DNA of 64,000 bases, taken from an uncultured delta proteobacterium (GTDB taxonomy: Bacteria > Desulfobacterota > Binatia > DP-6). Below are positions 28,867-32,744 of the stretch, piece by piece (within the stretch, counting starts at the first letter, position 1; each line of letters starts with the position of its first letter). A model generated the notes under the pieces. It searched no databases. It was given only the letters and a program-made list of their open reading frames with translations, and had not been told where the DNA came from. A program made the translations under genes and the position numbers. The stretch spans positions 6,500 to 70,499 of the forward strand of contig CAWESA010000010.1 of NCBI GenBank assembly GCA_963811605.1, in the 5' to 3' direction.

Positions 28867-29001
28867 GAGCGAGCGACCGTAACGCAGCTCGCCACGGATC
28901 GTCAAGGAAAATATGGATAGTCAATAAGATTCTCTTGAGCAGCGTATTGATTCCATGTGTTCACACTTGCTATTCACGTGCAAGCGCATTAGGACAGGCC
29001 C

Positions 29002-29799
29002 GTGACGAGGAACCGCAGTGTGCTCGAGGACACACGAGCCAGCTCCGAACGACGCCGCTGGGTGTCGGCGCGACGGTTGGCGGGGGTCGTTGCGCTGTTC
29101 ATGGCCGGCACGCTGGTCGGGCGCCCACCGGTCTTCGCATGCGAGCTGGACGGCGTCGTCGGCCCGGGAGAAGAGTGCGACGACGGAAACGACAACGACG
29201 TCGACTGCTGCCGCAACGACTGCACGGCCAACGTCGGCGCCCCGTGCGGGCCGGGCATCACGTGTGGTGCCGATCGATGCAACGCCGCCGGCACGTGCGA
29301 GCGAGTGGCGGCGAATCGCGGCGTGGTCTGCGGGCCGGCAAGCAGTACGTGCGACCCGCCACCTCGATGCGACGGCTCGGGCACGGGGTGCCCCGCGGCA
29401 AAGACGGACAAGTCCCTCTGCGCCTGGAGCATCAAGCCAGCCGGCGACCCGCTGAGGGAGGGGATCTCCGCCCTGTGCAGCGTGCCAGACAATCTGGGTA
29501 CGTCGTCCGGCGGGACTCGCCGTTCCGACTGCGTCTGTGTGGGCAAAGAGCAGGGCGGGGGCAAGCGGCTCACGGCACGCGTGGCTCCGCGGCTCGTGGA
29601 CAAGACGGAAAGCCCCGATGGACCGCGGAAGGAGAAGAGGTTCTTCCTTCGTCTCAACGCGCGAGGCCGGCGGCTCTTGAAGCAGGGCGGAACCCTCACC
29701 GTCGAAGTGAACGCGGTCATTCACCACGGGGATACGGAGAAGGGGTCGGAGCGCAGCCCCCTCAAGAAGTTGATCATGCTGCTGCTACGGAGCAGGTGA
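29002..29799 (+). CDS. Secreted cysteine-rich protein with myxobacterial Cys-rich repeat (TIGR02232-like)
   Basis: Signal peptide (ARRLAGVVALFMAGTLVGRPPVFA), then CELDGVVGPGEECDDGNDNDVDCCRNDC ... CDGSGTGCP. Lies in the lower-GC islet. Confidence 0.7.
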   Translation: MTRNRSVLEDTRASSERRRWVSARRLAGVVALFMAGTLVGRPPVFACELDGVVGPGEECDDGNDNDVDCCRNDCTANVGAPCGPGITCGADRCNAAGTCERVAANRGVVCGPASSTCDPPPRCDGSGTGCPAAKTDKSLCAWSIKPAGDPLREGISALCSVPDNLGTSSGGTRRSDCVCVGKEQGGGKRLTARVAPRLVDKTESPDGPRKEKRFFLRLNARGRRLLKQGGTLTVEVNAVIHHGDTEKGSERSPLKKLIMLLLRSR

Positions 29800-29943
29800 A
29801 CCGCAACTGCCGGCACTTCAGACGGTCTTTCGGCCAGAACGCTCTCCAGGCGTTCACCTTTCCGAGGGAGCGGCACGGTCGTCCGCTGCACACACCTCGA
29901 GATCGGGGGAGACGACGAACATGCACACCGGCTCGAGGGAAAA

Positions 29944-31176
29944 TTGCATCGGCACTTCCGTCCGCACGCTCCCACGACCGCCGGAGCGCGCGTGGAGCGC
30001 CGTGCTCAACAGCTGTTCCAACGAGTGGGCGAAATGCCGGTCGTGATCGGGCGATCCGTAGGCGAAGGCGGTACCAACAACCCCGCCGATGTCACACAGA
30101 TCGACGGCTTGCTGGCGAAGGTCGGAGTGCTGAGAGCGATCCGGGCCACCGCCGCGACACGACACGTAGCGATAAAGCGATTCCAGCAGATATGGGGTCT
30201 CGGGTCTGGCGGCAAGTTCGACGGCCGGATCGACCCCAACGCGACCACTCTCAGGAGGCTCAACGAGACCGCGAGGGGACTGACCCTCAACGCGATCGGT
30301 CTCGGCACGATCAAACGCGGCGGCTATCTGATCTCACACACCCCCAAGGCACCGCCCGCCCCGTACAGGCTTCTGCTGGGGCCATCGGTCCAGGACTGCA
30401 TCGACGTGACCGGTCGTCCGAGCGCGGATCTCCTCGACGTCCCCAAGCTCGTCGAGCTGCTCAAGCTGATCCAGAAGCTCGGCAAGTGGGGACAGATGCT
30501 GAGCGTAAAATTGCTCGTCGTACTTGACGGGCAGCCCGTGTCGGAATCGCTTCCCCAAGTATTGAACTGCCCGGTACAGCCACATAACGGCAGGATGCTG
30601 CCGCTCGATTTAACCGGAAACGGGAGCAAGCTGACGTACCAGGGTGACCCGGACAGAAACGAATTCAGTGGTCGCCTTCTTCACAAGATCGAAGGTTTCG
30701 ACGGATACTTCTTCAAGTACGCCGGGAAGTTCGAGACCAGCGCGAGCCGGCGTGGCTTTGACTGCATCACTTACGTGGGAACCACATGCGGGGCCCCCGA
30801 TGACGCGATGACCGCGAGCCCGCAACTCGCGGATGCCATGAACGCCAAGCGGTGTTCGATCGAACGGCTCGTCTCGCAAGATTCGCCCACCGGCCAGACG
30901 CCACCGACGGCCGCCCCGCGGACCAAGAAGGTCACGCTCGAGCTGGAGCAGACGGATCCGCAGAACGTCAAGGACTTCTTCGCAAGCAAGCCGACCGGTT
31001 ACTACCTCATGTGGAGCGGCGGGCACATCGTGATCGTGGCCGATGGCTCGGTGTACGAATTCGCCGCATCCAGAAAGGGGTACGTCGCAACGCCGGTGTC
31101 CTCGTGGCTCGAGCCTTACAGGACCAAGAGGCTCACCGTTCGCGAGCTCCCGTCAAAGCCGGCTTTGGCCACCTGA
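29944..31176 (+). CDS. Peptidoglycan-binding domain protein with C-terminal NlpC/P60-like cysteine peptidase motifs, no signal peptide
   Basis: PG_binding_1-like region (VTQIDGLLAKVGVLRA...AIKRFQQIWGLGSGGKFDGRIDPNATTLRRLNE). C-terminal FDCITYVG (NlpC/P60 DCSG-like Cys) and GYYLMWSGGHIVIVADGSVYEFAAS (His motif). TTG start at 29944; GTG 29989 or ATG 30034 are alternatives. GGGGGAG SD-like motif ~35 nt upstream of the TTG (too far to act as its RBS). Confidence 0.6.
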   Translation: MHRHFRPHAPTTAGARVERRAQQLFQRVGEMPVVIGRSVGEGGTNNPADVTQIDGLLAKVGVLRAIRATAATRHVAIKRFQQIWGLGSGGKFDGRIDPNATTLRRLNETARGLTLNAIGLGTIKRGGYLISHTPKAPPAPYRLLLGPSVQDCIDVTGRPSADLLDVPKLVELLKLIQKLGKWGQMLSVKLLVVLDGQPVSESLPQVLNCPVQPHNGRMLPLDLTGNGSKLTYQGDPDRNEFSGRLLHKIEGFDGYFFKYAGKFETSASRRGFDCITYVGTTCGAPDDAMTASPQLADAMNAKRCSIERLVSQDSPTGQTPPTAAPRTKKVTLELEQTDPQNVKDFFASKPTGYYLMWSGGHIVIVADGSVYEFAASRKGYVATPVSSWLEPYRTKRLTVRELPSKPALAT

Positions 31177-31341
31177 GTCGCGCACAGACGGCTCGCGCCG
31201 CCAGCGCATCGCCGATCTGTCGATCGACCAGACGGGTCGTCTCCGCGATGGTCTCCGGGAGACGGTGAGCGGCCTGGCACTCGATCGGCCCTCGCGGTGT
31301 TCCGGCCGATCCCGATCACCCGACGCGTCCCCAGACGGAAT

Positions 31342-31352
31342 AGCTACCTTGT
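31342..31352. promoter_or_regulatory. Palindrome GTGA-ATA-TCAC upstream of padR, with a possible -35 TTGACC / -10 GAGAAT promoter downstream
   Basis: Seen in the AT-richer intergenic region 31177-31452. Confidence 0.3.
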
Positions 31353-31452
31353 GAATATCACGGCACTTCCGTCGCTGTTTACCCTTGACCGCGACACTTG
31401 CTCGTGAGAATCGATGTGCCGCAACGAGACCACCCGCAGCCCGACGAGGTCC

Positions 31453-32043
31453 ATGATGCCAATGTACGCGTTGCAGTACGCAGTACTCGGCCTCATCTCT
31501 GCACGCGAGGCAGGGGTCCACGGCTACCGACTGAAGAACGAGTTCGAGGCCCTCTACGGCGACTTCTGGGCGCTCAACTACGGGCAGATGTACCGTACCC
31601 TCGACCGCCTCGAACGCGCAGGCTTGATCGAGGGCTTCGACGAGCTGCAGACGCGACGGCCCAATCGCAAGGTCTTCCGCATCACCAAGCAGGGCAGGAA
31701 GCGCCTCGACGCATGGCTCGTGCATCCACCGAGTCAGGAGCCGCGCCCGCTGCGCGACGAGCTTTCGCTGAAGCTGCTGTTCCTGGCGGAGGCGCGCCTC
31801 GATGAGATGCGCGCCATCATCAGCACGCAGCGCGCGCTCTACCTCCAGCACCTCAGCCGGCTCAACAAGCGCCGCGACACGGTCATGGACACCCGGGAGG
31901 GATTCGTCATGAAGCTGCTGTTGAGCCAGGCAGACATGCGGGTGCGCTCGGATCTCGCCTGGCTCGATCTGGTCGAGACGGAGGTGGCAAAGCGCTGCAC
32001 GGCGTCCGCGGCCGCACTCCCGCACTCCGGCAAGGAGCGATGA
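31453..32043 (+). CDS. PadR family transcriptional regulator
   Basis: MYALQYAVLGLISAREAGVHGYRLKNEFE...WALNYGQMYRTLDRLERAGLIEG winged-helix signature. The listed ORF starts at 31414; ATG 31453 is the more likely start. Stop overlaps the next gene (ATGA). Confidence 0.85.
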   Translation: MMPMYALQYAVLGLISAREAGVHGYRLKNEFEALYGDFWALNYGQMYRTLDRLERAGLIEGFDELQTRRPNRKVFRITKQGRKRLDAWLVHPPSQEPRPLRDELSLKLLFLAEARLDEMRAIISTQRALYLQHLSRLNKRRDTVMDTREGFVMKLLLSQADMRVRSDLAWLDLVETEVAKRCTASAAALPHSGKER

Positions 32044-32744
32044 TCCGCTTCGACAACGTCTGCAAGACCTTCGGGCAAGGTCCGACGCAGGTCCAGGTCC
32101 TGCGCAACCTGACCCTCACCATCCCCGAGGGGCAGTTCTGCTCCATCATGGGACCGAGCGGCTCGGGCAAGAGCACCATCCTGCACGTCACCGCCGGCCT
32201 CACGCCGCTGAGCGCCGGCGAAGCATGGGTCGACGAGTACCGGCTCTCGCAGATGACCGACCGCGACGCGGCGCTCTTCCGCCGTCGATCGGTCGGCATC
32301 ATCTTCCAGTTCTTTCACCTCCTGCCGTACCTGACCGCGGAGGAGAACGTCGCCCTGCCGCTCCTGCTCGACGGCCGGTCGTCCGCCACCATCGCGGAGA
32401 GCACCGAGCGCGTCCTGCGGCTGGTCGAGCTGTACGATCGGCGCCATCACAAGCCCGCCGAGATGTCGGGGGGGCAGATGCAGCGGGTCGCGATCGCCCG
32501 CGCGCTGGTCACCAAGCCACGCGTGGTGCTCGCCGACGAGCCGACCGGCAACCTCGATTCCATCGCCAGCGCGGCCATCATGCAGCTCCTGCGACGCAGC
32601 AACGAGGAGTTCGGGGTGACGGTGCTCATGGTCACCCACGATCCGGTGTGCGCGTCGTATGCCCAGCGGGTGATCCGCCTGATGGACGGCCGCATCGTCG
32701 AGGACATCGACGTCGCCGAGGCGCCCCAGCTGGCGCGCGGCTGA
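32040..32744 (+). CDS. ABC transporter ATP-binding protein (MacB/LolD/YbbA-type ATPase)
   Basis: Walker A GPSGSGKST, Q-loop, signature MSGGQMQRVAIARAL, Walker B VVLADEPTGNLD, H-loop VTHD. Confidence 0.9.
   Translation: MIRFDNVCKTFGQGPTQVQVLRNLTLTIPEGQFCSIMGPSGSGKSTILHVTAGLTPLSAGEAWVDEYRLSQMTDRDAALFRRRSVGIIFQFFHLLPYLTAEENVALPLLLDGRSSATIAESTERVLRLVELYDRRHHKPAEMSGGQMQRVAIARALVTKPRVVLADEPTGNLDSIASAAIMQLLRRSNEEFGVTVLMVTHDPVCASYAQRVIRLMDGRIVEDIDVAEAPQLARG

Follow-up and report, generated by a model that had tools for sequence, protein, structure and literature searches.

In a stretch of 64,000 nucleotides from an uncultured Binatia bacterium (contig CAWESA010000010.1, positions 6,500 to 70,499 of the forward strand; hereafter the window), we describe a gene that encodes a leaderless three-domain protein, predicted to be a cysteine hydrolase and, judging by its sequence, a member of a rare, undescribed family. 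The most likely reading, to which we give about even odds, is that this protein is an orphan, cargo-type antibacterial effector, acquired horizontally, exported by a type VI secretion system and acting in the periplasm. More tentatively, this protein of 380 amino acids (aa) may define a new effector family, one of peptidoglycan hydrolases delivered by contractile (type VI) secretion, with a three-domain architecture of its own (PG_binding_1 or LysM, a novel middle domain and a divergent papain-like Cys-His-Glu domain), accompanied by a new family of ~274-aa periplasmic immunity proteins and spread by transfer across at least six phyla, including the uncultured Binatia. To our knowledge, interbacterial weaponry has not been described in Binatia, and literature searches yielded nothing specific on this hydrolase family or on type VI secretion in this group. 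If the proposal is true, a structurally distinct family of murein-hydrolase effectors and a new immunity family would join the known interbacterial weapons, and the effector family would reach the poorly studied soil phyla Binatia, Acidobacteriota, Gemmatimonadota and Verrucomicrobiota. The gene is the following:

30034..31176, plus strand: leaderless three-domain predicted hydrolase, 380 aa, with a C-terminal Cys-His-Glu domain.

The alignment of homologues indicates that translation most likely starts at the ATG at 30034, and not at the TTG at 29944 from which a first, sequence-only reading of this DNA had derived a protein of 410 aa. The protein consists of a PG_binding_1-like three-helix N-domain (residues ~15-81), a middle domain (~86-192) and a C-terminal Cys-His-Glu domain (193-380), in which C244 (30763-30765), H331 (31024-31026) and E342 (31057-31059) are the candidate catalytic residues. 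Its AlphaFold2 model has a pLDDT of 95.8 and a pTM of 0.89. In this model, the helices of the N-domain (17-29, 40-54 and 71-81, pLDDT above 90) fit a three-helix bundle of ~60-70 residues, the middle domain is alpha/beta, a helix begins with C244, a strand begins with H331 and the strand after it carries E342. As modelled, the order of the cysteine, the histidine and the third residue would be that of the papain-like or NlpC/P60 arrangement.

The sequence-only reading had also described a peptidoglycan-binding domain and NlpC/P60-like motifs. The conserved Cys and His are indeed present, but Pfam calls neither PG_binding_1 nor NlpC/P60 on the window protein: PG_binding_1 (PF01471) does not match it even at E <= 1, and a family profile aligns weakly to the peptidoglycan-binding regions of YcbB, SleB-like and VanY-like chains (E 0.14-1.5). 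The catalytic part has no usable match in Pfam, NCBIfam, PADLOC or PHROGs, and the comparison of the single sequence and of two family profiles with PDB sequences gave either nothing or marginal matches to the peptidoglycan-binding region. When the profile of the C-domain was aligned by hhalign with a sequence of E. coli MepS, the probability was 0.1%, and no relation was found. A Foldseek comparison, which had been suggested as a check, returned nothing from the PDB at E <= 1e-3 for either the full-length or the C-domain model. The matches of the full-length model were restricted to spurious FN3 and complement ones, while the weak matches of the C-domain were enriched in NlpC/P60 enzymes (CwlO, MepS, MAP1204, SagA), the others being the papain-like folds Josephin, deubiquitinases (DUBs) and C39. 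It is on the papain-like arrangement of the residues and on these weak NlpC/P60 and papain-like fold matches that we call the protein a divergent papain-like cysteine hydrolase, predicted to be NlpC/P60-like in its action; its sequence does not show membership in NlpC/P60, which the fold suggests weakly.

Our set of homologues comprises 65 proteins of about 370-400 aa. In 61 sequences, 20 alignment columns do not vary; they include RGFDC(244)ITY, H331, E342 and the PVQPHNG motif of the middle domain, and the window copy retains all 20 residues. A profile of the C-terminal 188 residues retrieved 184 cluster representatives among 1.84 billion proteins; in 103 more remote members, Cys and His never vary and Glu is conserved to at least 90%. 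PG_binding_1 is fused in 42 of 61 family members (E <= 1, best 1e-9) and in 26 of the 103 remote ones (E <= 0.01), which also include five proteins with LysM. These two N-terminal modules are the only Pfam domains fused to the family and, since both are murein-binding, they point to peptidoglycan as the substrate. The absence of a signal peptide, proposed earlier for the window copy, was borne out by a hydrophobicity scan in which 163 of 164 members, the window copy included, have no signal-like or transmembrane segment. Because neither the catalytic nor the middle domain has a Pfam or NCBIfam model or a sequence relative in the PDB, the confident AlphaFold2 model and the invariant residues provide a start for biochemistry.

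The family is patchily distributed in Verrucomicrobiota, Gemmatimonadota, Acidobacteriota and Beta- and Alphaproteobacteria, and the closest relatives of the window copy (55-58% identity) include Verrucomicrobiota proteins. A scan of the GTDB species representatives that used the RGFDCITY motif as its only key found 12 loci, none of them from Binatia. The Rhodobacteraceae versions (Sulfitobacter and Leisingera; loci L021-L024 and L047) are much longer, with open reading frames (ORFs) of 537-801 aa, and come from cultured strains, which makes them a practical entry for experiments.

The genomic contexts of the homologues are what suggests a role for the protein. The homologue P0004 (55% identical; locus L002) belongs to a complete type VI cluster, with clpV on one side and vgrG on the other, and P0026 has a vgrG-DUF6484-HEAT-DUF2169-PAAR-like set 3 kb upstream and tssBC at a distance of 7 kb. 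Moreover, a partner of ~274 aa adjoins the hydrolase homologue, often with overlapping start and stop codons, in at least 12 loci (Acidobacteriota, Alphaproteobacteria and metagenomes); the N-terminus of this partner is signal-peptide-like, and no Pfam or NCBIfam model covers it. Type VI contexts combined with an adjacent secreted partner form the genetic pattern of type VI amidase effector-immunity pairs. Separately, we noticed a second candidate effector pair after P0004 and before vgrG (L002 9483-10868, L003 2654-4039), in which a 199-aa protein without a known domain comes after a 255-aa Peptidase_C92-like permuted papain amidase (E 2.5e-6).

We propose that the hydrolase would be made in the cytoplasm without a signal, and that a contractile (type VI) system whose genes lie elsewhere in the genome would export it and deliver it into the periplasm of a neighbouring cell. 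Once there, it would bind murein through its N-domain, and its cysteine hydrolase part would cleave peptide stems or cross-links. In the largest clade of the family, the translationally coupled ~274-aa periplasmic partner would protect the producer from its own enzyme. The window copy, which is without this partner, would be an orphan residing in a horizontally acquired segment of ~6.6 kb with a low GC content at third codon positions (GC3). The bond that is cleaved, the dependence on type VI secretion and an activity in this organism are what we infer here.

The position of P0004 inside a type VI core cluster, together with the peptidoglycan-binding domain, could also designate an accessory murein-remodelling enzyme which, like TagX or a recruited MltE, would open the wall of the producer itself for assembly of the apparatus. 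We give this explanation very little credence: type VI genes are distant from most copies, the existence of a dedicated secreted partner speaks for neutralisation and not for assembly, and with neither a signal peptide nor a membrane anchor, the hydrolase could not reach its own periplasm. That the protein is a phage endolysin or the remnant of a prophage lysis cassette, as had been considered from the sequence alone, is almost certainly not the case. The order of an N-terminal PG_binding_1-like domain and a C-terminal catalytic domain without a leader does recall some Gram-negative phage endolysins, and there is a weak PHROG match (phrog_3754, E 0.001 over 46 residues) that is not significant. 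However, no homologue was found in 50,697 phage records or 72,556 plasmids, and no BFVD structure matched at E <= 1e-3; no holin, capsid, tail or integrase gene stands in the window segment or in the contexts of the homologues; and a secreted protein of 274 aa, rather than a holin or a spanin, is the conserved partner.

We then come to the DNA around the effector candidate. The genes and the spacer that surround it are:

24899..25210, minus strand: small conserved gene, 103 aa, upstream of sucA; last collinear gene at the left border, GC3 0.94.
25426..28905, minus strand: 1159-aa secreted protein of unknown function; largest gene of the low-GC3 segment.
28906..29001, no strand: AT-rich divergent intergenic spacer between the two secreted-protein genes, 43.8% GC.
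29002..29799, plus strand: Cys-rich secreted protein, 265 aa from the GTG at 29002, with a signal-peptide-like start from the GTG at 29062.
31414..32043, plus strand: PadR-family regulator with a Vir_act_alpha_C-type C-terminal domain (PF03551 E 6e-19, PF10400 E 1.8e-5).
32040..32744, plus strand: LolD/FtsE/MacB-type ABC (ATP-binding cassette) ATPase (PF00005 E 2e-32).

The dip in GC content that the sequence-only reading had placed at 28906-32744 is real: GC is 65.1% there vs 72.0% across the window, which ranks in the lowest 0.7% among windows of the same size, and the tetranucleotide distance to the window mean culminates at 27-31 kb (z 3.1). Its depth and its borders had to be revised. GC in 300-bp steps spans 57-72% within the region, and not the 55-64% first estimated, and all eight lowest-GC 96-bp windows of the 64 kb fall in 26.7-31.4 kb. 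GC3 places the atypical zone at about 25.4-32.0 kb, that is ~6.6 kb beside the sucAB genes. In their own reading frames, the genes of this zone have a GC3 of 0.75-0.88, and the flanking genes 0.94-1.0; against a background of 23 other window genes (0.945 +/- 0.035), the z-scores of three genes of the segment range from -4.3 to -3.4. GC3 is 0.793 in the hydrolase gene, 0.827 in the gene of the Cys-rich 265-aa protein and 0.797 in that of the 1159-aa protein (z -4.2, second lowest in the window). Since the anomaly begins at ~25.4 kb, ~3.5 kb to the left of 28.9 kb, it includes this last gene. At the other end, the PadR gene (0.876, z -2.0) is a marginal member, and the ABC ATPase gene has native composition (0.932) and is a neighbour standing outside the atypical segment. 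Thus, the islet is re-drawn to 25.4-32.0 kb and shows the compositional deviation sought in horizontally acquired DNA, and the PadR and ABC ATPase genes are split off from the story of the hydrolase. A second compositional outlier was noted elsewhere in the window: a LolA_like/DUF1329-type gene beside xerC-hslVU (42249-43478, minus strand; GC3 0.81, z -3.8).

Related genomes were also compared, as had been advised. Three Binatia relatives (L050-L052), whose SucA proteins are 87%, 79% and 78% identical to that of the window, are collinear with it from 9.6 to 25.2 kb (GNAT/CoA ligase, PQQ, ABC-F, FKBP, lpd, sucB, sucA and the small 103-aa gene, whose orthologues, 72-73% identical, precede sucA in all three). 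Nucleotide similarity to all of them stops at window positions 25,183-25,201. Past ~25.2 kb, the slot is occupied by a CusA-like RND pump in one relative, by MscK in two, and by the low-GC segment here. At this left border, where the absence of synteny was tested, none of the window genes between 25.4 and 43 kb was found in the 10-kb flanks of the relatives. Synteny therefore breaks at the left border of the low-GC3 segment, in a slot whose content differs between relatives, and a low-GC3 segment at such a breakpoint is consistent with horizontal acquisition. This origin is plausible and comes without a mechanistic signature: no tRNA was found in the window, the scan of the segment revealed only chance-level repeats, and no integrase adjoins the segment, the nearest integrase-family gene being xerC-like, at 43-44 kb, next to hslVU. 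Scans of the segment for promoters and terminators and against Rfam were uninformative.

Several of our observations weigh against the effector proposal. Among ~15 independent long contexts, two adjoin type VI genes, and the ~13 others have none within 10 kb according to Pfam annotation or to tblastn with seeds from two clusters. The genes scanned in the 64-kb window include no type VI gene either. The window copy has no immunity-like partner at its side, and homologues of the 274-aa, 93-aa and 117-aa partners are absent from the window. In its own clade, the downstream ORFs differ from locus to locus (93 aa; 117 aa, HEAT-like; 62 aa, with two transmembrane segments) and are mostly devoid of signal peptides, while the Aquabacterium copies are solitary, in a conserved neighbourhood of housekeeping character. 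Mobility genes, a tRNA and flanking repeats, which would mark an island, are lacking. As for the catalytic domain, none of the 164 members has an NlpC/P60 match in Pfam or NCBIfam, the family profiles hit no PDB sequence, and the NlpC/P60 fold matches are weak (E >= 0.06, TM 0.2-0.45).

Some of these points would suit a housekeeping or cytoplasmic cell-wall enzyme, involved in muropeptide recycling or murein remodelling, the low GC being then a trait of lineage-specific, weakly expressed genes and not a mark of transfer. Many copies are indeed solitary, with no immunity or secretion genes nearby (Gemmatirosa, three metagenome-assembled genomes of Aquabacterium/Burkholderiaceae, and others), the Aquabacterium neighbourhood is conserved, the LolA_like gene of the window has a similarly low GC3, and mobility signatures are lacking. 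We nevertheless regard such a function as unlikely. It is hard to see what PG_binding_1 and LysM modules would do in the cytoplasm; in contrast to housekeeping enzymes, the family is very rare and scattered patchily over the phyla; and the gene is missing from the syntenic position in the three relatives. Furthermore, a housekeeping role leaves unexplained both the coupled secreted partner of at least 12 loci and the placement inside type VI clusters.

The genes next to the hydrolase had initially been grouped with it: the Cys-rich protein, the hydrolase, PadR and the ABC ATPase would form one horizontally acquired effector or bacteriocin-immunity module, in which the ABC protein confers immunity or export. 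The effector part of this idea fits the hydrolase, given its homologues in type VI clusters and their secreted partner; for the four-gene module itself, we see little chance. The four genes are adjacent on one strand in a region of reduced GC, the PadR and ABC ATPase genes overlap as ATGA with an AAGGAG upstream, so that their translational coupling, noted before, is confirmed, and in Gemmatirosa a PadR gene plus an FtsX permease gene lie 2 kb from the hydrolase homologue. On the other hand, the hydrolase is separated from its neighbours by gaps of 234 bp and 237 bp, the ABC ATPase gene is native by its GC3, and for the Cys module of the 265-aa protein, the window contains a native paralogue. 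Across some 35 further hydrolase loci, we found no homologue of the Cys-rich protein, of the 1159-aa protein or of PadR, and no ABC ATPase adjoining the hydrolase; in a few of them, matches to the ABC ATPase occur 2-6 kb away at 27-33% identity, and we take these as unrelated ABC ATPases. The only other place where ABC and hydrolase sequences touch is P0037, a 291-aa metagenome protein from ENA in which 62 residues of an ABC ATPase N-terminus are in frame with a hydrolase starting from the middle domain; we judged this fusion to be most likely a chimeric assembly.

The ABC ATPase had been considered an orphan, with no permease partner nearby. It is not clearly so, because a duplicated permease of the FtsX/MacB type is encoded 4.8 kb downstream on the same strand, in DNA of native composition, which also argues against the four-gene module:

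37546..40143, plus strand: duplicated FtsX/MacB_PCD permease, 865 aa (PF02687 E 1e-33, PF12704 E 3e-26, two copies each).

The ATPase and permease genes have three opposite-strand genes between them. The best NCBIfam models of the ATPase are LolD, FtsE and DarD, all under their equivalog cutoffs; PadR matches TIGR03433, and the permease matches LolCE and ADOP-like models, likewise below cutoff. PadR and the ABC ATPase probably constitute a separate regulator-transporter unit that works with the downstream FtsX permease.

On the other side of the hydrolase, the two secreted-protein genes diverge from the AT-rich spacer, presumed to be a bidirectional promoter region. This spacer holds the lowest-GC 96-bp stretch of the window, in agreement with its earlier description as AT-rich. 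The CACGTG-type palindromes ascribed to it reduce to one copy of a hexamer that occurs 25 times in the window, and no match to a sigma-70 consensus was found in it. The 1159-aa protein has a signal-peptide-like N-terminus, 23 Cys in its first 200 aa, three CxxCH motifs, two Asp-box-like motifs and a 110-aa Thr/Ser/Pro linker encoded by imperfect ~42-nt repeats (27986-28265); it has no match in Pfam, NCBIfam or PHROGs. The 265-aa protein contains 17 Cys. As to its proposed construction from myxobacterial Cys-rich repeats, Disintegrin (20.6 bits, cutoff 35.1) and TIGR02232 myxo_disulf_rpt (16.5 bits, cutoff 20.8) both score below cutoff. Its Cys module resembles (E 2e-5) the paralogue at 48313-49539 on the plus strand, a 408-aa disintegrin-like Cys-rich protein (PF00200 E 5e-15) of native composition. 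We also observed that the Cys-rich ORF and the hydrolase ORF are in the same frame with one TGA between them, the next 234 nt being stop-free (29797-30033). We considered a read-through fusion and discarded it, since 29800-30033 shows no GC3 periodicity and the homologues begin at the Met of 30034. The shared frame is probably a coincidence, and not the trace of read-through or of a split gene. In the Verrucomicrobiota loci (L014, L026-L028 and L032), signal-peptide proteins are likewise encoded 5' of the hydrolase, as at the window copy, but they are not homologous; 3' of the hydrolase, these loci have a conserved 62-aa ORF with two hydrophobic segments.

Among known systems, the regulator-transporter unit is closest to the PadR-regulated FtsX/MacB-type ABC systems of Acidobacteriota and Gemmatimonadota (TIGR03433 PadR, ADOP-type duplicated permeases). 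As in these, PadR is coupled to a LolD/MacB-type ATPase and a duplicated FtsX permease is nearby; a pairing of PadR with a permease is also seen in Gemmatirosa. It differs in that all window scores are under the curated cutoffs, the ATPase and permease genes are separated, and a link with the hydrolase is not demonstrated.

For the hydrolase, we compared three systems. With modular Gram-negative phage endolysins of the phiKZ gp144 and EL gp188 type, it shares a leaderless architecture with the binding domain first and the catalytic domain last; unlike in these, its catalytic domain is unrelated and comes with no match to phage records or structures and no phage context. With the NlpC/P60 D,L-endopeptidases (MepS/Spr, CwlO, RipA, SagA; PF00877), it shares a Cys at the N-terminus of a helix, a His that opens a beta-strand and, 11 positions further along on the following strand, a third residue that is acidic or polar; these enzymes are the commonest class of its weak fold matches. 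In contrast, no hidden Markov model or profile match links the two and the TM-scores are 0.2-0.45. Housekeeping NlpC/P60 enzymes carry signal peptides or lipoboxes, whereas the window hydrolase family is leaderless.

The Tae1-4/Tai1-4 pairs (such as Tse1-Tsi1 and Ssp1/Tae4) are the third system. Tae proteins are small and single-domain, while the window protein has ~380 aa and three domains, the N-terminal one of the PG_binding_1 type. There is no sequence similarity between them, and Tae structures are not in the top 50 Foldseek PDB matches; no Pfam or NCBIfam model covers the partner family of ~274 aa, and at the window copy both the partner and type VI neighbours are missing. The likeness lies in the biology of the two families: both comprise leaderless Cys-His murein hydrolases of patchy phyletic distribution, encoded in type VI clusters or as orphans, with the gene of a periplasmic immunity protein next door that often overlaps that of the hydrolase, a role which the ~274-aa partner would fill in the family described here.

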